Virus record (IMG/VR): IMGVR_UViG_3300045988_147970
Reading direction: 5' to 3' (one strand)
Length of the DNA stretch: 38,666 nucleotides
DNA from: a virus
Lineage: Duplodnaviria; Heunggongvirae; Uroviricota; Caudoviricetes
Part shown: piece by piece, positions 6,077 through 15,328 of the stretch
Position numbering within the stretch: the first letter of the stretch is position 1
How the letters are laid out: every line of letters starts with the position of its first letter
The notes under the pieces: model-generated
The model's input: only the letters and a program-made list of their open reading frames with translations
Told to the model about the DNA's origin: nothing
Database searches by the model: none
Translations under genes and position numbers: made by a program

Positions 6077-7933
6077 CTATATGGTTACGCCTTTACTTAT
6101 AACTCTACGGCGTCTTCTACGTATACCTGACGAGTTCTGCACATACACATTACCTCGCATTTCCTGTTCGGCAAGCCAGTTAAAATTAGGGTTCAGAATT
6201 TCCATCGCGGCAGTTGCATAGTTACGGCAATCAAGAGGCTCGTTACGCTCGTAGACTTTCACCCACTTTTCTTTTGTCTGCCCATTTTTATATTCAAATA
6301 TTTTCTTCTCTGATAATAATCCTTTAAAGTATTCGGTATCATATCCTCTGTCAGAATCTAATGGGAAATGCATATAACCAGGACCAGGATCATGTAGTTT
6401 AATTCTTGCCATGATGGTCCCTTTACCATCATCAACCCCCAAATTAAACAACATAGCACCCACACGGTTATTATTACTTGGCTTTCCTATAAATGGTAAA
6501 CCTACCCCACCACGCCCCCTGATAGAGTATATTCGCCTTGATTCTCTCGGCTTAGTAAAGCGATATACCTCTGTCGTAAAATGCCCACCAGAGTCAATAC
6601 AAACGGAAGAAATCTGTAATTTTCGACCGTCACGGAATGACCAGCTACGGAGTAAGTATTCATCAAGTTGTTTCCAGACAACATCTTGTGCGGGATCACC
6701 TGGGAATATTTTATATTCTATCCCCCATGACTCCTTACCTTTTCCCCAACCGACCAATTCACAAACTAAATACGTGTCCTGTACGTCAACACCAGCACTT
6801 AACAATAAAACATCATCTGGTAAAAACTCTTCAAACCTTATTCTGCGTTGCAACAAGTATTCAGGATCGATATCGTCTTTAGCATCCTCTTTCCATGGCT
6901 CACCCAGCTTAAGGTTAATAAACTCCATTAATCCATTTTTATCGCGGTTTCTGGTTGCTTCCGTAAATTCTTCAACCAGCTCTGACAATGCAACCCACGG
7001 GGAGTAAAGACTGTTAATATGAAAACCAACAATACCTTTAACTCCAGTATGTTCAGCTATCCATACCCCCTTCGCCAACCAATCAACGTCTGGTTTACCA
7101 GATCCGCGCATAATCCCGCCGCACTCACAGCACTCATATCTGGCCGTTTCCGGTAACGCCTCACCTGAATCGCTCTTATCCCATCTGACTTGCGACCATT
7201 TCATCACCTGCATGGTGCCACAACATGGGCAAGGAACATGGTAGTAACGCTGATCGGAGAGCTTAAACCACTTGTGGATTTTGCTCGTTTCCTCCAAAAC
7301 AGGAGTAGAAACAAAAACTTTCTTACGATTATGAAAGTTGGTAGTACGCTGAATACCTAGTTTTAGTGGGTCGCCCTCCTGCGTCACACCGTAACGATCA
7401 ATCTCATCAGCTAACAGTATTCGAATTGGCCTGGATGCAAGACCTGCTGGGGAATTAGCACCAACAAGTGCTATATATCCACCAGCGTAATGCTTCATAC
7501 GTATAGTCGTGCTGGACTTTTTGGCTGCACCGCGCCCCTCTTTCCCTTCATGCAGCTTGTGTTTCAAACCAGGGGAATATTTGAACGTCGGATCAATACG
7601 CTCTTTTGAAAAAGCCTCAGCCGCCTCTACCGTTGGATAAATCATCAACTGAGGAGATGGCTCCTGATCTGCAAAGTAACCCATAACATTTAGCTGTAAT
7701 TCGGATTTACCAATTTGCGAGCTACATTGCATCACTACTGTTTCTGTATCAGCGTCACCAATAACATCCATTGGTTCACGCAAATATGGCACTCGGCTTG
7801 TACGCCACGGCCCTGGCTCTGGAGACGTTCCCGGCGCTACATGACGATACTTATCAGCCCATTCGGAAACAGTTAGCCGTGATTTAGGGCGAAGCGCACG
7901 GAAAAAAGCGGTGCTCCATACTGTTTCGCCCAT
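6077..7933 (-). CDS. terminase large subunit (lambda gpA family)
   Basis: 618 aa; N-terminal TVSEWADKYRHV resembles lambda gpA AVEWADANYYLP; Cys-rich CPCCG motif aligns with gpA CPHCG. Confidence 0.85.
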   Translation of the reverse strand: MGETVWSTAFFRALRPKSRLTVSEWADKYRHVAPGTSPEPGPWRTSRVPYLREPMDVIGDADTETVVMQCSSQIGKSELQLNVMGYFADQEPSPQLMIYPTVEAAEAFSKERIDPTFKYSPGLKHKLHEGKEGRGAAKKSSTTIRMKHYAGGYIALVGANSPAGLASRPIRILLADEIDRYGVTQEGDPLKLGIQRTTNFHNRKKVFVSTPVLEETSKIHKWFKLSDQRYYHVPCPCCGTMQVMKWSQVRWDKSDSGEALPETARYECCECGGIMRGSGKPDVDWLAKGVWIAEHTGVKGIVGFHINSLYSPWVALSELVEEFTEATRNRDKNGLMEFINLKLGEPWKEDAKDDIDPEYLLQRRIRFEEFLPDDVLLLSAGVDVQDTYLVCELVGWGKGKESWGIEYKIFPGDPAQDVVWKQLDEYLLRSWSFRDGRKLQISSVCIDSGGHFTTEVYRFTKPRESRRIYSIRGRGGVGLPFIGKPSNNNRVGAMLFNLGVDDGKGTIMARIKLHDPGPGYMHFPLDSDRGYDTEYFKGLLSEKKIFEYKNGQTKEKWVKVYERNEPLDCRNYATAAMEILNPNFNWLAEQEMRGNVYVQNSSGIRRRRRRVISKGVTI

Positions 7934-7938
7934 GAGGT

Positions 7939-8499
7939 TTATTCTTCCTGCTTAATAAATCGGGATTCCTGGAGCGCCTGAAGCGCAAAATTAATCTCGT
8001 CTTCAATAATGCGTTCGATCTCCCTGGCTGTTTTGCCTTCACAACGGGGAGCTGCTCTTGGAGCAATACTAAATAAGCGGCTACGCAATTCATTAGCTGC
8101 CAGAAATGCATCATCCCTGACCGCATCTTTAGCGATGAGAGAGCCTTCCTTTTCTTCAAATTCAAGGCGTTTCAGCTTTGCCTGATAAATTTTTTCTGCG
8201 GTCTTAGCCTTGTTGAATTGCACCGCAACACCGGAAGTACCACCAGCTAATCCGGCATCATCAGCGGGTAACTCTGGTTGTTCCGAAGATATCCCATGCC
8301 CTCTTTTTCCATTTTCAGCAGATACCTCACGACCAACCTGTCGGCTCGCTTCATAAGCCGCACTGGCTTTATCAAAATCCAGCTTGCCGCTTTTCAGCAC
8401 TGGAATGCGACCGGAACGACAGAGCTTCGTAACCATTGCCGGAGAAATACCTTTCCGGCGAGCAAACTCTGACTTACTGACGATGGCCATTACTTGCAA
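7939..8499 (-). CDS. terminase small subunit (Nu1-like, N-terminal HTH)
   Basis: 186 aa directly upstream of the large terminase; N-terminal helix-turn-helix-like segment (SKSEFARRKGISPAMVTKL). Confidence 0.6.
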   Translation of the reverse strand: MQVMAIVSKSEFARRKGISPAMVTKLCRSGRIPVLKSGKLDFDKASAAYEASRQVGREVSAENGKRGHGISSEQPELPADDAGLAGGTSGVAVQFNKAKTAEKIYQAKLKRLEFEEKEGSLIAKDAVRDDAFLAANELRSRLFSIAPRAAPRCEGKTAREIERIIEDEINFALQALQESRFIKQEE

Positions 8500-9080
8500 C
8501 CATTAGCAAGATACTGAACAAATCCCTCATGCGTTTCATGCGCGTCGTGGTACTGACGATAAACATCCAGCAACAATGCAATTTCCATATCCGTCGCGGG
8601 AATACGTTCTTTATCAATAGCCAGGTACTTAATTTGAACAACAGGGGAAGAATTATCGTCTTCTTCCTGCGGCTGTTCATCGCTTAACATTTCGTCAAGC
8701 TCTGCATCATTAAACCCAAGCAGATCAATATCAAAATCATCATCCATTAACTCTTTGACTTCTTCGGCCAGAAGCTGCATATCCCAGCCAGCATTTAAGG
8801 CCAGCTTGTTATCTGCAATCCTGTAAGCCTTCTTCTGTTTTTCAGAAAGGTTACTCAACCGAATCGCCGGAACTTTATCCATTTCCAGAATTTCGGCTGC
8901 TGCAAGCCGACCATGCCCCGCAATCAGTTCATTCTTTTCATCGATCAGCACAGGATTAGTGAAACCGAACTCACGGATACTGTTCACCAACTGTTCAACC
9001 TGCTCATCTGAATGAGTCCGTGAATTTTTGGCGTATCTGAGCAGCTTACCGACTGGTAAATATTCGATTTTTAGAGCCAT
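8490..9080 (-). CDS. ParB-like nuclease domain (ParB/Srx N-terminal domain) protein
   Basis: 196 aa with ParB N-domain box (LIAGHGRLAAA); stop overlaps the small terminase start; paralog of 11747..12370. Confidence 0.7.
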   Translation of the reverse strand: MALKIEYLPVGKLLRYAKNSRTHSDEQVEQLVNSIREFGFTNPVLIDEKNELIAGHGRLAAAEILEMDKVPAIRLSNLSEKQKKAYRIADNKLALNAGWDMQLLAEEVKELMDDDFDIDLLGFNDAELDEMLSDEQPQEEDDNSSPVVQIKYLAIDKERIPATDMEIALLLDVYRQYHDAHETHEGFVQYLANGCK

Positions 9081-9637
9081 TTTTTAACCGCCATAACACA
9101 ACAGGTTAAAGAAAACTGTTTAACTTATTGATACTAAAAGAGAAAAATGACGATCTTTTTACTCATAAAAAATCACACAAACCAGCATAATCATCTGATT
9201 TTATTAAGTTTTTATAAGTAAAAAGGATCTTGAGATGGTGTTTTGGTTAAAAGATTGGATGTATTTGCATGATTTATAACGATTTTTATCAGAACAACAT
9301 CACATTGGTTAAAGATCTGCGCGTATCTTGATGATCTAAAAGAAAATTTTCTACTTTCTTTTTACCAGCACAAATACAGCAAAAAATCACGTTTTCCCGA
9401 TATTTTTCAATGAGATGAGTAAATTTCTTTTACCGCAACTTTTAACCTAACTTTTTTCACGTTTAGCTAGCCGAACATCGGGGTTCGAATGACCCGCATC
9501 CAACGCTTTTGTCCAGAAGGACCCAATTCTGCCGGACGATGAAACGATGCTCGTGCACCCCCACAGACAGCCAGCGAGCGACGCTACAGAACACAGTGAA
9601 TACACTCTGCATAACAACACCATCAACCACACGATGA

Positions 9638-10357
9638 TTAACGAGAGAAGGTCTTGGAAAGAATGTCATCAATAGCCTTTGTGACTTCATCAGCAAACGC
9701 ATCCTCACCAGCACGCAGCGCCACGCCATGCCAATCAAGACGCTGCGAATAGTTAGGTTGCTGGATAAACGTAAGGATCAACGTAGGACGCCGCCCAACG
9801 CGCTGCCAGACGCCTGGTTGAAGCGGGTTACTTGTACCAGGTCGAACAACAAAAAACTCCGTAGGCTTGCCCTGACGGCGATTTTGATGCGCATCTCGCT
9901 GAACTCTTAGGCCAGATAAGACCTGCTGTAATTGCCCCCGCGAAATATTCCCGTATTTGTCCAGCTTTGCGCCGGGACCAGGAGCAATCTGCCAGCCGTT
10001 AGGCAAATATCCACCAGCCCTTAGCGCCCCTTCTGAGCGTTTGTACTGTCGTTGGCCACCTTCGATTTGCGGAGTCAACGTTACAGGGGCTGGCGTTCCT
10101 CCCCATTCACGAGCATACACAATGGCTGTAGGATCACTCTTCTTTGCGGCCAAAACGTAAGTAGAGTTCTGAATCCACGGCGTGGGCCTGTCAAATACCC
10201 GATTAATTTCATTCTTAATCGCAGCCTGAGAAGCCTTTGCCGTTCTGGTTGCCGCAAGCGCCATTGCGAACGGCAATTCGCGTTCTTCAAGGCGCTGGAG
10301 TTGTCGTTGAATATCCTGAGAAGAAAAATCCATCTTTATCTCAATTCTGTCAGCCAC
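9638..10357 (-). CDS. hypothetical protein within the ParB/methyltransferase cassette
   Basis: 239-aa ORF co-oriented between the ParB-MTase fusion and the terminase-proximal ParB gene; no motif recognised. Confidence 0.35.
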   Translation of the reverse strand: MADRIEIKMDFSSQDIQRQLQRLEERELPFAMALAATRTAKASQAAIKNEINRVFDRPTPWIQNSTYVLAAKKSDPTAIVYAREWGGTPAPVTLTPQIEGGQRQYKRSEGALRAGGYLPNGWQIAPGPGAKLDKYGNISRGQLQQVLSGLRVQRDAHQNRRQGKPTEFFVVRPGTSNPLQPGVWQRVGRRPTLILTFIQQPNYSQRLDWHGVALRAGEDAFADEVTKAIDDILSKTFSR

Positions 10358-10373
10358 CAGCGCCTCCTACACA

Positions 10374-11753
10374 CTACTTAATCAACGGCCGGAAAGCCGC
10401 CAGCACATCATCAGATCGTCCGATTGTTGAACCACCAGGCAACGGCAACTCAAACTCAAAACGAACAGCTTTCTCCAGACTCGCCCAACTAAGGGAATCA
10501 TCGTTAATGACGTGCAAATACCAGCTCTTACAGTTGAATATTGACCGCTTAATCCTGAAACCATGTACACGACACAACTGCTTCACTTCCTCATCAGAGT
10601 GAAACTTCTGGTAAAACCAGTGCCCCTTCCGGTACAACGCGGTAAAACCGTCATGATCAATAAAATAAAGCCGGCTTTTGGAACTCGCCGCTTGTGTTTG
10701 CTTCAGGACTGTTTCCAGTTCTCCACGGCTACGGCCAGAAAAGAATATTGACCCACCAGCTTTACACAGGCCTTTCAGAACCGTCAGAACGGACCATTCA
10801 GCCTCGACACTATCGACCGAGTTCAAAACGCTATCGCAAATCACGTAGTCGTAACGCCCTCGCGTTTTTAAGTCGTCCACCAGCGTATCAATCATCCGGT
10901 TTGTTGCGGCCCTATCCAGAGTGTTTCCAGCGCCCTTACGGCGGAAAAGCTCGAGATCATGCAGGTTATATCCCTTTGCCCTGAGCATTCGCGCGTAGTC
11001 TCCCTGCCCCGAACCAAAATCAATTCCTCTTGGCGTCTTGGCAATGATCGGGAGGATCAACGACTCATACAGATTTGATTTCAGGCTGCCACCATTACGC
11101 AACCGCATAAGCTGCGCATACGTCTGGATGTATGTTGTTTTCTCCAGATGAGAATACTCAAATACACCATAAGTTTTATTCAGATAACTTTGGTATTTTT
11201 CCTTCTCAACATCAGGGATCACAAACACCGTTAGCGGTGTGCGCGTCATTTTCGCTGCTAATGCATACTGAGCACAGTGAATAACCTCACCAGACTGAGT
11301 AGCAACACAACCACCCCACGGACCATACTTGATAACCAGTTCCGCTATGTTCTTTCGAACATATGCCATTTTCGCGCGCATATTGCCTGAGATCTGGCTT
11401 GCCGATACCTGAACAAAACCATGCTTATCTTCCAGACCGGACACCCTGCAACGCTCATCTCCGCTATCAAAATCCGTTCCGTTATGCAGTTGGTTAAACC
11501 GTACTTCGTCGTATACCGTCGTTTCACAGGGCAACACATACACCGCAGCACGCGTTATTCCCAACTTACGTAGCGCCTTCGTCCTTTGGTGTCCCGCCAC
11601 CAGCAAATCGCCGCGCACTATCAATGGCTTCACAAGCCCCAGCTCCCTGACGCTTTCCGCCAGCCTCGCAAGATCATCCTCACCGATAAAACGCGGGTTA
11701 TATTCCGCGCCGCGTAGGTGCGTTATGTCGTAATTGAGGTGAAGCATCAGCAC
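10374..11753 (-). CDS. ParB-like N-terminal domain fused to a class I SAM-dependent methyltransferase domain
   Basis: N-terminus has a ParB box (LLVAGHQRTKALRKLG); C-terminal half has SAM-MTase motif I (IDFGSGQGDYARML), an acidic motif II (YDYVICDSV) and GGSIFFSG; 459 aa. Confidence 0.65.
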   Translation of the reverse strand: MLMLHLNYDITHLRGAEYNPRFIGEDDLARLAESVRELGLVKPLIVRGDLLVAGHQRTKALRKLGITRAAVYVLPCETTVYDEVRFNQLHNGTDFDSGDERCRVSGLEDKHGFVQVSASQISGNMRAKMAYVRKNIAELVIKYGPWGGCVATQSGEVIHCAQYALAAKMTRTPLTVFVIPDVEKEKYQSYLNKTYGVFEYSHLEKTTYIQTYAQLMRLRNGGSLKSNLYESLILPIIAKTPRGIDFGSGQGDYARMLRAKGYNLHDLELFRRKGAGNTLDRAATNRMIDTLVDDLKTRGRYDYVICDSVLNSVDSVEAEWSVLTVLKGLCKAGGSIFFSGRSRGELETVLKQTQAASSKSRLYFIDHDGFTALYRKGHWFYQKFHSDEEVKQLCRVHGFRIKRSIFNCKSWYLHVINDDSLSWASLEKAVRFEFELPLPGGSTIGRSDDVLAAFRPLIK

Positions 11754-12370
11754 ACCTCCCCAGCCAGCAATGCGGATACAAATCCGATATAGCTGCCATT
11801 ATCATCAACATAACGAGACACCGCGCAGTCAAAACGATCCGCTTCCTCATCCGTTGCCGGGATTTTATGACCTCCAAATGACAGGTACTGAACTTTTACG
11901 CCTGATTTGGCCTCATCCTTCTCAAATGGGATATCCATACCCTCTGTGTCATCGTAGACCGCCGCACTCAATAAGTTATCCAGTTCGCGCTGAGTAAAAC
12001 CAATTGAGTCCAGAGCAAAATCATCGGCCGCAAGATCTGCAAGCTCCGCGCTTAACAACTCTTCATCCCAACCAGCATTCAGCGGAATACGGTTGTCGGC
12101 CAGACGATATGCCTTCTTCTGATTCTCCGTTAGCCCAGCCAGAACAATGCAGGGAACATCATCCATCCCCAACTGAGTGGCCGCAGCAATTCGACCATGA
12201 CCAGCAATTACAACGTTGTTCTCGTCTATCAGGATCGGATTAGTCCATCCGTACTCCTGTATGCTGGCAACAATCTGATCTACCTGCTCCACGGAGTGTG
12301 TGCGAGCGTTCTTTTCATAACCAATCAACACAGAAAGTGGTAAAGAAACCACATTAAGATGTTTTGTCAT
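11747..12370 (-). CDS. ParB-like nuclease domain protein (paralog of 8490..9080)
   Basis: 207 aa; ParB box (VIAGHGRIAAA); similar along its length to the 196-aa ParB-like protein, including the C-terminal KIPATDEE region. Confidence 0.7.
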   Translation of the reverse strand: MTKHLNVVSLPLSVLIGYEKNARTHSVEQVDQIVASIQEYGWTNPILIDENNVVIAGHGRIAAATQLGMDDVPCIVLAGLTENQKKAYRLADNRIPLNAGWDEELLSAELADLAADDFALDSIGFTQRELDNLLSAAVYDDTEGMDIPFEKDEAKSGVKVQYLSFGGHKIPATDEEADRFDCAVSRYVDDNGSYIGFVSALLAGEVC

Positions 12371-12604
12371 GCCGTTTATCCGCTAAAATCCCCTCGCTTG
12401 TGCAAGCAAGTGGGCCTCGGTTTGTATCCACGGCACCCTGTGGGTATGAATGACTGTCGTCAGGTCGCAACTGACGGCGGTCGCCCACCTTCCAGTAATA
12501 AAAAAGCCACCAGCATTAACTCCACAGCGAGCAGGAGTTAATGAGGCAGCTTTGGTTTGCGCATTATCGCAGCCCCTGATTAGCACAAGAGCTGCTGTAA
12601 TGCG

Positions 12605-13015
12605 TTACGCAGGGATCAAACAGATGTGGCCGTTATTTACCTCAATACGGGAATATTCCGGCTTACCATCCACGATTCCGGTAATGACAAGTTCGCCATC
12701 AGGCGACCATTCTTCTTTGTCGTCTTCAAGTACCGCGCCTTCTGGCAAATCAATACAGGCAAAAACAGGGCAGCCAGGATGACGTTTATCCTCCATCGCA
12801 ATCAGCATCGACTCACCGAACCACTCTGTGGTAGCACGGCCATCAGCCGCCTGATAGTGAATCAGATACTGGTTTTCGCCATTTGCATACTGAGCACGGG
12901 CTTGAACTTCTCCCCACTCTTCACTGATACGCATTGTTACCAGTTGGGATAATTCAAACTTAAACGGAACAGACTCTGCACCAATGGCAATCGGTTTATC
13001 TTCTTTCTTTTCCAT
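12605..13015 (-). CDS. hypothetical protein
   Basis: Start chosen at MEKKEDKP (residue 24 of the track ORF) because AGGTGA sits 5 nt upstream and a terminator-like hairpin lies just before it. Confidence 0.35.
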   Translation of the reverse strand: MEKKEDKPIAIGAESVPFKFELSQLVTMRISEEWGEVQARAQYANGENQYLIHYQAADGRATTEWFGESMLIAMEDKRHPGCPVFACIDLPEGAVLEDDKEEWSPDGELVITGIVDGKPEYSRIEVNNGHICLIPA

Positions 13016-13026
13016 AACATCACCTG

Positions 13027-13057
13027 AAAATAAAAAGCCCCGCGACACCGCGAGGCT
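13027..13057 (-). terminator. intra-operon rho-independent terminator or attenuator
   Basis: Minus-strand hairpin AGCCUCGCG-GUGU-CGCGGGGCU followed by UUUUAUUUU, then AGGTGA RBS and the ATG at 13015. Confidence 0.4.
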
Positions 13058-13064
13058 GTAAGAG

Positions 13065-13229
13065 TTACTTTCGATATAAATCAAGGCGCATTTGCTCCCG
13101 CTTAAGCCGAAAAGCCCTCTGCGCCACTAAGATGCGCCACAGGACACCAGCGATAACCACCAGCGAGATACAAAAACACACGGCCACAACCATCAGAAAA
13201 ATGCCAACACCATTCATGAAACTATCCAT
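13065..13229 (-). CDS. small hydrophobic protein, 54 aa (not in the ORF track)
   Basis: Manually translated MDSFMNGVGIFLMVVAVCFCISLVVIAGVLWRIL... with one predicted TM helix; start overlaps the end of 13214..13426; weak RBS. Confidence 0.2.
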   Translation of the reverse strand: MDSFMNGVGIFLMVVAVCFCISLVVIAGVLWRILVAQRAFRLKREQMRLDLYRK

Positions 13230-14356: not shown

Positions 14357-14944
14357 CTATGCCACTTGCCAGAGAGCATCATGCAACTGGATACCTCCAT
14401 TGCACTGGTTGCCCCAGCCATGCCAACCATCAGGTAAATCACCGCGAGCAAACAGCTCAATACGAGGAACATCACCTAACAGCCTTACCAGCTTGTCACG
14501 AACCACATCAGGCTTCCGAGAATGCTCCAGACGAGGCGATGTAAACGACTGAATGATCCCCGCATCAAGGCGGGTCGGCAATTTGCCTTTTACCGCAAAC
14601 AAGCAATCTTCACTGTTTGCACGAGTCATATGCCCCATCCCCATCACCAGCTTATCTGGTTGTCGGCTACCACATTTGTTCCATGTGAAGCCCTTCATGG
14701 TCATAAGCCTGAATCCCCATGCTTTCACCACCAGCAACGCTTCTTCTGGCTGAGTCGGAACCCACCACATGGCCAACAAACACGATTCAGGATTAGCAAG
14801 CTGCCAGACAGGAATACGAGCAATATCCTCAGCTTTCATCGTTGGATACTTAAAACCAGCTCCACGATTCCCATCCTTACACTTATCTTTGTATTCCCAG
14901 GGGGGATCTGCATAAATCAGATTAAACAATGCAATTGCCTCCAT
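14357..14944 (-). CDS. N6-adenine DNA methyltransferase, MT-A70 family
   Basis: N-terminal IYADPPWEY (DPPW catalytic motif) is the MT-A70 signature; 195 aa. Confidence 0.8.
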   Translation of the reverse strand: MEAIALFNLIYADPPWEYKDKCKDGNRGAGFKYPTMKAEDIARIPVWQLANPESCLLAMWWVPTQPEEALLVVKAWGFRLMTMKGFTWNKCGSRQPDKLVMGMGHMTRANSEDCLFAVKGKLPTRLDAGIIQSFTSPRLEHSRKPDVVRDKLVRLLGDVPRIELFARGDLPDGWHGWGNQCNGGIQLHDALWQVA

Positions 14945-15252: not shown

Positions 15253-15328
15253 TGGTGGCCCCTACCGGATTTGAACCGATGACCGTGCGATTATGAGTCG
15301 CCTGCTCTAACCACTGAGCTAAGGGGCC
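15253..15328 (-). tRNA. tRNA with anticodon CAU, ileX-like (tRNA-Ile2 or Met); 3-prime CCA encoded
   Basis: Reverse complement GGCCCCTTAGCTCAGTGGTTAGAGCAGGCGACTCATAATCGCACGGTCATCGGTTCAAATCCGGTAGGGGCCACCA folds as a cloverleaf; the first ~42 nt match my recollection of E. coli ileX. Confidence 0.85.

Follow-up and report, generated by a model that had tools for sequence, protein, structure and literature searches.

What ParB folds do beyond chromosome segregation is a question of current interest, and one phage locus raises it in a compact form: what do three ParB-fold proteins, one of them fused to a methyltransferase, do between the lysis and packaging genes of a tailed phage, and do they form one system with the gene that lies among them? 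The locus spans positions 7,939 to 12,370 of the IMG/VR virus record IMGVR_UViG_3300045988_147970 (Caudoviricetes). The whole stretch, 38,666 nucleotides (nt), is the window to which all unprefixed coordinates refer, and all genes of the region lie on its minus strand. The sequence comes from a temperate myovirus of about 48 kb that is maintained as a plasmid and also forms virions. An earlier, sequence-only reading had described four adjacent genes at 8490-12370 as a single cassette, perhaps for DNA modification, anti-restriction, packaging or a mixture of these. All four open reading frames (ORFs) are present, on the minus strand. They are, in our analysis, three separate units arranged around a probable cos site: a two-gene module of a stand-alone ParB (ParB1) and a ParB-methyltransferase fusion (ParB-MT), a probable neck protein (p239), and a second, packaging-linked ParB (ParB2). 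The apparent cassette is therefore not one operon-like system. The explanation that we favour, with a probability of about 0.45, is that ParB1 and ParB-MT constitute a mobile, late-expressed DNA-modifying methyltransferase that is activated by its ParB partner and serves against host defences.

Results

A probable cos site separates p239 from ParB2

The transcription order of the region is ParB1, ParB-MT, p239, an AT-rich gap of 557 nt (9081-9637), ParB2, the small terminase gene terS and the large terminase gene TerL. The four genes do lie between the lysis genes (15.6-17.1 kb) on one side and terS/TerL on the other, as had been noted from the sequence. The contiguous four-gene stretch that had been described is nevertheless interrupted, for the gap, with its probable cos, parts p239 from ParB2.

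Alignment of the p239-ParB2 intergenic region from nine relatives, including some whose ParB-MT is only 69% identical, shows divergence throughout except for one invariant island with the core GGGTCATTCG(A/T)ACCCCG. A 17-mer at 9479..9495, GGGTCATTCGWACCCCG (GGGTCATTCGAACCCCG on the minus strand), is present exactly once, and always between p239 and ParB2, in 30 loci. The GenBank records of three Yersinia phages start and end at this very place, vB_YpM_39 and vB_YpM_41 at 9494|9495 and vB_YpM_44 at 9482|9483, that is, 12 nt apart. The record ends and the conservation make it probable that cos lies at about 9479-9495, with the 17-mer as the putative cosN core and a predicted 12-nt cohesive end at 9483-9494 (GGTCATTCGAAC).

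Between this core and ParB2 lies an AT-rich region (9104..9447) with a repeated CTTT(T)AACC motif: the window has five matches in all, four of them within these 344 bp, and inverted copies are found as well. One relative (L019 among our numbered loci) has about ten copies of TTGTTAACC at the equivalent place. The region looks like cosB, the site of the terS-binding repeats in lambda. The likeness to a lambda-type cos served by gpNu1/gpA extends to the gpA-type TerL, to the 12-nt offset of the deposited ends, and to the order of a conserved core followed by repeats upstream of terS. Two differences stand out. A ParB gene is placed here between the cosB-like repeats and terS, and the ends are deduced here from database records. 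The lambda cos core, GGGCGGCGACCT, also differs from the core found here.

With cos in the p239-ParB2 gap, the virion chromosome would carry ParB1, ParB-MT and p239 at its right end, and ParB2, terS and TerL at its left end. Many virome contigs (L121, L124, L125 and L133; L025, L036, L038, L053 and L076) open with a stand-alone ParB or with a pair of ParB and ParB-MT, and have the terminase genes next. Because a ParB is the first gene at so many contig ends, genome termini seem often to lie just upstream of such ParB genes.

The gene on the near side of the gap, p239 (9638..10357, minus strand), is the last gene before cos; it starts with GTG, and an AGGAGG of its own precedes this start by 5 nt. 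In phages without ParB genes, too, a p239 homologue is the final gene ahead of terS and a gpA-type TerL, in one case 49 nt from the contig end. No Pfam family matches p239 at E<=0.01. Its fold appears to resemble that of an HK97 gp10-type neck protein, and p239 is a probable virion protein of the neck or tail-completion type. It departs from the HK97 gp10 family in being twice as long, in having no Pfam match, and in the place of its gene, which lies far from the head-tail genes, at the other end of the genome. We suggest that p239 would be a virion protein that merely happens to be the last late gene before cos.

A single functional cassette combining DNA modification with packaging would fit the adjacency of the four genes, their common strand, their position in the late region, and their joint presence in the phage-plasmid lineage of E. 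coli. The components, however, assort independently in relatives, cos lies in their middle, and p239 looks structural. We consider the single cassette very unlikely, and on the same three grounds the corresponding claim of the sequence-only reading is not upheld.

ParB1 is the constant partner of ParB-MT in an optional module

ParB1 (11747..12370, minus strand; 207 amino acids, aa) is a stand-alone ParB/Srx protein that matches phrog_620 (E 4e-74) and, just below the cutoff of 26.3 bits, Pfam ParB_N (23.9 bits). Its layout comprises a nucleoside triphosphate (NTP)-binding domain with the box II motif AGHGR, a helical hairpin, an acidic linker and a conserved C-terminal domain. Downstream, its stop codon and the start codon of ParB-MT (10374..11747, minus strand) overlap by 1 nt in the junction TGATG.

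This pairing is general. A stand-alone ParB of about 190-250 aa lies directly upstream of the ParB-MT homologue, on the same strand, in 77/77 evaluable IMG/VR loci; the survey covered 80 loci, with ParB-MT identities down to 32%, and the remaining three are cut by a contig end. The two ORFs overlap or are at most 16 nt apart in 69 of these 77 loci, and the pairing recurs in the genome and metagenome loci L004, L006 and L011. An alignment of 59 diverse partner ParBs reveals conservation of N21, of G57-H-x-R60 and of D/N91-92, together with a shared C-terminal signature, IPxTxxE...Y....G...GFV..LL; a helix-turn-helix (HTH) domain was not found in this alignment. The module also keeps company with packaging genes, as the large terminase starts 0.45-2.2 kb downstream of it in 54 of the 80 IMG/VR loci. 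The adjoining terminases belong to four unrelated families (gpA, Terminase_1 type, Terminase_3 and Terminase_6).

The pair is optional, because 18 close relatives have no ParB1/ParB-MT within 6 kb, the slot being taken there by lysis genes and reverse-strand accessory genes, and because in one further locus (L095, 4519-4707) all that is left of ParB-MT is a C-terminal remnant of 62 aa, upstream of p239. NZ_CP024829.1, a plasmid of 32 kb, has ParB2 and no second ParB match. Both L095 and this plasmid look like natural deletion derivatives. ParB1 and ParB-MT are a self-contained two-gene operon that can be gained and lost, and in it ParB1 is the obligatory partner.

Could the stand-alone ParBs be the centromere-binding partition proteins of the phage-plasmid? 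The element is a plasmid, and annotations of these genes read 'chromosome (plasmid) partitioning protein ParB'. The profile scores speak otherwise, with TIGR00180 giving 29.8 bits for ParB1, 40.1 for ParB2 and 16.4 for ParB-MT against a cutoff of 58.45. None of the three sequences has an HTH Pfam match or the ParA-binding motif [LFI]G[KR]G[LFI], and solved ParB/Noc/Spo0J chains match them in the N-terminal domain only. A ParA of the plasmid itself, with an 82-aa partner, is encoded about 30 kb away, no ParA adjoins ParB1, ParB2 or ParB-MT, and the same genes are found beside terminases in integrated prophages and virome contigs. On the TIGR00180 scores and the separate ParA pair we reject the partition reading, which we hold to be exceedingly improbable.

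Other genes accompany the pair in some loci. A third family, of about 135-170 aa and rich in Cys and His, abuts the 3' end of ParB-MT in either orientation; examples are L024 1610-2041, L036 2037-2471, L031 8361-8804 (minus strand), L006 2210-2644 and L004 9419-9883. Its invariant residues include Y, W, K, H-C-A, Y-x-C-G-V, N-x-H and C-R-N-x-x-F, and searches of Pfam, PHROG and PDB gave no match for it. BLAST clustering places the family in 33 loci and a hidden Markov model (HMM) in 49 of 80; it is absent from the window and from the closest relatives. Genes of the Amidoligase_2 and GGACT/AIG2 (gamma-glutamyl cyclotransferase-like) types adjoin the pair in two distant prophages, one in Bradyrhizobium (L004, 9936-17196) and one on a marine metagenome contig (L011, 9381-10973).

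ParB-MT joins a ParB fold to a methyltransferase of the Methyltransf_23 type

ParB-MT is a protein of 457 aa, counted from the RefSeq ATG, with three domains, all encoded on the minus strand: an N-terminal ParB/Srx domain (aa 1-90; 11478-11747), a family-specific middle domain (aa 96-215; 11103-11462) and a class I S-adenosylmethionine (SAM) methyltransferase (aa ~225-415; 10503-11075). The fusion had been recognized from the sequence, and Pfam bears it out with matches to Methyltransf_23 (PF13489; 31.9 bits, cutoff 27) and to ParB_N (24.3 bits, just below the cutoff of 26.3). An N-terminal ParB fold followed by PF13489 is the architecture that defines the ParB-CTPase + Methyltransf_23 fusions. 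ParB-MT matches phrog_5475, a family annotated as of unknown function, from end to end (E 6e-265, 3-459 of 458 positions), and its homologues, 774 clusters at 45-73% identity, extend across Alpha- and Gammaproteobacteria. Its AlphaFold model is of high confidence, with a pLDDT of 90.5.

In the family alignment the residues of the NTP pocket do not vary (box I NPR, box II AGHQR, and N85). The GHGR of the stand-alone ParBs and the GHQR of ParB-MT align with the GERR of Spo0J, and the ParB/Srx fold is present in all three proteins and strong in the PHROG ParB families. Fusions of this type are enriched in phages and prophages, and a tested 'Mtase23' protein with the box II sequence GHQRTKA was among the ATP binders in vitro (Kaljevic et al. 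2025, PNAS, PMC12704722). Because GHQRTKA is also the invariant box II motif of the ParB-MT family, ATP binding by a member of this family is very probable; for this property we draw on the literature.

Among 1.84 billion representative proteins the middle domain had 244 matches, all of them at residues ~96-218 of proteins of about 460 aa. Profile searches of PDB sequences and Pfam gave nothing for it, and hhalign of the N-terminal ParB domain against the middle domain was negative (probability 0.4%). Its order of secondary-structure elements repeats that of the first domain, and the partner-ParB HMM aligns to it weakly (best E 1e-3) and always in the same register. These two observations are suggestive of a second, degenerate ParB-like fold with another residue in place of the box II arginine.

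In agreement with what the sequence-only reading had noted, the methyltransferase is not of the DPPY/DPPW type, there being neither such a motif nor a match to PF01555 or PF05063 in ParB-MT. By structure, its nearest neighbors are small-molecule, Trm9 and METTL6-type enzymes. With PADLOC, no defence system was assigned to any of the four proteins: p239 matched nothing, and the matches of ParB1, ParB2 and ParB-MT were limited to the ParB module of a type II MTase model, in the case of ParB1 to its N-terminal 150 positions (E 3e-37).

The fold type of the methyltransferase suggests our main rival explanation, that the methyl acceptor of ParB-MT is not DNA: it may be a protein, tRNA or another RNA, or else a ligand of the ATP-binding ParB/Srx domain, whether a nucleotide or a small molecule (a host immune signal or a cofactor, for example), with ParB1 as the regulatory subunit. 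Beyond the Methyltransf_23 type and its structural neighbors, this explanation can appeal to ParB/Srx folds that are ATP-using enzymes acting on non-DNA substrates (Srx and SerK; cited with PMC12704722), to the probable ATP binding of a family member, and to several conserved arginines (R269, R270, R339 and R373) that would be compatible with a phosphorylated substrate of any kind; a gene for tRNA-Met is found in the vicinity. DNA is pointed to instead by the homology of the partner ParB to a ParB module that is attached to DNA methylases, by the only stand-alone phage ParB partner that has been studied experimentally, which acts in double-stranded DNA (dsDNA) modification, and by the slot of the module, which in other phages holds DNA methylases (L008, L116 and L119). 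We judge a non-DNA substrate to be possible, if on the unlikely side.

ParB2 belongs to the packaging unit

ParB2 (8490..9080, minus strand; 196 aa) is the first gene after cos and matches phrog_620 (E 5e-75) and Pfam ParB_N (33.7 bits, cutoff 26.3). It is a paralogue of ParB1, as had been proposed, with 48% identity between the two (BLASTP E 5e-62). Its predicted translational coupling to terS also holds, since stop and start codons overlap by 1 nt in the junction TAATG. The terS gene (7939..8490, minus strand) encodes 183 aa from the ATG at 8490 and matches phrog_57, 'terminase small subunit' (E 7e-42), with weak HTH matches to AbiEi_4 and Cox-like families. TerL (6077..7933, minus strand) is of the lambda gpA type, as seen in Pfam matches to GpA_ATPase (E about 1e-76) and GpA_nuclease (E 1e-84), which replaces the HK97-type packaging setting of the sequence-only reading. 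ParB2 persists, at 76-86% identity, in 18 loci that have no ParB1/ParB-MT, and there it is accompanied by p239, the cos core, terS and TerL. It belongs to a packaging unit cos-ParB2-terS-TerL.

The first ~150 aa of ParB2, and likewise of ParB1, are homologous to the N-terminal module of ParB_N + N6_N4_Mtase DNA methylases (43-57% identity, E 1e-37 to 1e-52). In two loci (L116 and L119) such a ParB-N6_N4 DNA methylase occupies the slot of ParB2, which may be the methylase-less counterpart of the enzymes that fill the same slot in related phages.

The location of ParB2 invites a different explanation for the ParB proteins, ParB2 above all, namely that they are nicking nucleases or NTP-dependent DNA-handling factors that aid the terminase at cos, as HNH proteins do with HK97-type terminases. 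ParB2 is indeed the first gene after cos and coupled to terS, and it stays with terS/TerL where ParB-MT is absent. More distant stand-alone ParBs lie about 1.2-1.4 kb upstream of a gpA-type TerL, often at contig starts, and a ParB-MTase of a B. cereus prophage nicks DNA non-specifically and adjoins terS (PMC3592412, PMC5512222). The analogy with HNH endonucleases, which the sequence-only reading had drawn, survives only as one of position, however: none of the four proteins has an HNH Pfam match or another nuclease motif, and gpA-type terminases carry an endonuclease domain of their own. Lambda, for its part, does without a factor of this kind. Many p239-bearing gpA phages lack a ParB at this place (L008, L010), and the ParB-DNA methylase in the same slot (L116, L119) points to modification rather than cleavage. 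A packaging aid is in our estimate distinctly unlikely. A literature search for ParB-like nucleases together with small terminases and packaging returned no papers, and a broader one nothing relevant.

The element and its neighboring genes

That the element is a virion-forming phage-plasmid follows from plasmid copies of about 48 kb and from phage isolates with 99% identity. The 4-kb query region is 99-100% identical to sequence in circular plasmids of that size. Among 5426 complete E. coli genomes, 74 had a match, with 78 of the places on plasmids and 3 on chromosomes. PLSDB lists 62 plasmids with the element, 57 of them from Escherichia and all of 47-52 kb and non-mobilizable; among its entries is NZ_CP009073.1 (48,488 bp) of E. 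coli ATCC 25922, a strain in wide use for quality control; it is the same phage-plasmid, and its ParB-MT is 99.6% identical. An annotated copy, NZ_CP069971.1, encodes RepA, ParA with the 82-aa partner, a RelE-type toxin, a P2-like contractile tail and a lambda-like head. The isolates with 99% identity are the Yersinia phages vB_YpM_39, vB_YpM_41 and vB_YpM_44 and one E. coli phage record.

Upstream of ParB1, the window holds an MT-A70 DNA adenine methyltransferase with a DPPW motif (14357-14944, minus strand; Pfam E 3e-23, PADLOC MTase_II E 2e-68) at a distance of 2 kb; ParB-MT-A70 fusions are reported from archaea (PMC12704722). A tRNA-Met gene with a CAT anticodon (15253-15328, minus strand) lies between the lysis genes and the MT-A70 gene. 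RefSeq labels this gene tRNA-Ile, and it may encode a lysidine-type tRNA-Ile2. The 136-aa gene preceding ParB1 has on its upstream side a strong hairpin resembling an intrinsic terminator (13036-13057, minus strand; 9 pairs, 7 of them G-C, followed by TTTTATTTT). When 7800-13200 was scanned for promoters and terminators, promoter-like sites were fewer than in shuffled sequences, and the cos gap yielded nothing.

Discussion

Our favored explanation sees three units around cos, among which the ParB1/ParB-MT module would supply the enzymatic function. ParB1 would act like the ParB activators of phage thymine dioxygenases, engaging both DNA and the ParB domain of ParB-MT in a nucleotide-dependent manner, so that the methyltransferase is switched on or delivered. 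ParB-MT would then mark replicated phage DNA late, just before packaging, and the mark would protect the DNA from host defences. Its chemistry may well be other than N6-adenine, N4-cytosine or C5-cytosine methylation. The DNA-modification or anti-restriction role put forward by the sequence-only reading thus stands as the most plausible one for ParB1 and ParB-MT, though not for the four genes as a unit.

Several points weigh against this explanation. We infer DNA as the methyl acceptor, and the interaction between ParB1 and ParB-MT is a proposal. The methyltransferase domain resembles small-molecule and tRNA enzymes and not any DNA methylase, and the phage already owns a conventional DNA methylase in the MT-A70 protein with its DPPW motif. 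The position beside terminases may only mark a hot spot for accessory genes and imply no link to packaging. The assignment of cos depends on the linearization of three GenBank records and on conservation, and its ends are predicted. The ATP binder of Kaljevic et al. was placed in the ParB-MT family by its Pfam label and boxes I and II, not by its full sequence. In the precedent for a ParB activator, the 5mYOX/ParB system, no stable complex of ParB and enzyme was trapped, and mutations in the NTP pocket had little effect (PMC13229309).

A bolder proposal, speculative and in our view rather improbable, is that the pair, joined elsewhere by the Cys/His-rich third gene, represents a new class of ParB-activated, ATP- and SAM-dependent nucleic-acid modification that would place a non-canonical methyl mark on phage DNA about to be packaged. 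Such a mark, distinct from m6A, m4C and m5C, might be a ring-nitrogen, O- or phosphate methylation, or the methylation of a pre-activated base, and the switch would be a nucleotide-driven heterodimerization of the two ParB domains.

The analysis turns a catalogue entry into a defined and testable system: a fixed three-domain enzyme with a cognate stand-alone ParB, usually beside packaging genes. It also corrects routine annotation, as the genes are not partition genes and the four do not form one operon-like system. If ParB-MT does lay down a new mark on DNA, the module would add to the known DNA modifications and give ParB-gated DNA chemistry its second example, with a bearing on how phages and phage-plasmids escape restriction. 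A convenient host is at hand, for the element resides in E. coli ATCC 25922 and forms infectious virions.

Comparison with known systems

Three known systems are instructive. The first is the set of fusions surveyed by Kaljevic et al., which have the same pair of domains and the same box II motif as ParB-MT and correspond to phrog_5475. The survey gave no substrate, partner or genomic position; the present work adds the upstream ParB, the middle domain, the placement by terminases and the third, Cys/His-rich gene.

The second is the stand-alone phage ParB that activates a neighboring thymine dioxygenase on dsDNA (O'Toole et al. 2026, PNAS, PMC13229309). In the 5mYOX176/ParB176 pair, the ParB consists of a nucleotide-binding domain, a helix-helix region, a disordered linker and a C-terminal domain, and has no DNA-binding domain (PMC13229309). 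The partner ParBs of ParB-MT share this layout of nucleotide-binding domain, hairpin, linker and C-terminal domain, and like ParB176 they are encoded beside their enzyme, in each of the 77 loci. It is by layout that they are likened to ParB176. The enzymes differ, 5mYOX176 being an Fe/2-oxoglutarate dioxygenase, whereas ParB-MT is a SAM methyltransferase with a ParB domain of its own.

The third comprises the prophage ParB_N + N6_N4_Mtase fusions (phrog_498; PADLOC PDLC03229; Bce_0392 of B. cereus), which have the homologous N-terminal module and the slot immediately upstream of terS/TerL in common with the proteins described here. ParB1 and ParB2, unlike these fusions, have no methylase domain and end in another conserved C-terminal domain, and ParB-MT is not a beta-class enzyme of the DPPY type. 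M.EcoGII, a non-specific adenine methylase from a prophage, was considered as a further carrier of a ParB domain and dropped, as its paper describes no extra domain.

The type of fusion had thus been catalogued, and ParB-gated DNA modification has one precedent. New, as far as the searchable literature shows, are the obligatory ParB partner, the middle domain exclusive to the family, the placement beside terminases of four families, the frequent Cys/His-rich third gene, and the split of the locus by cos.

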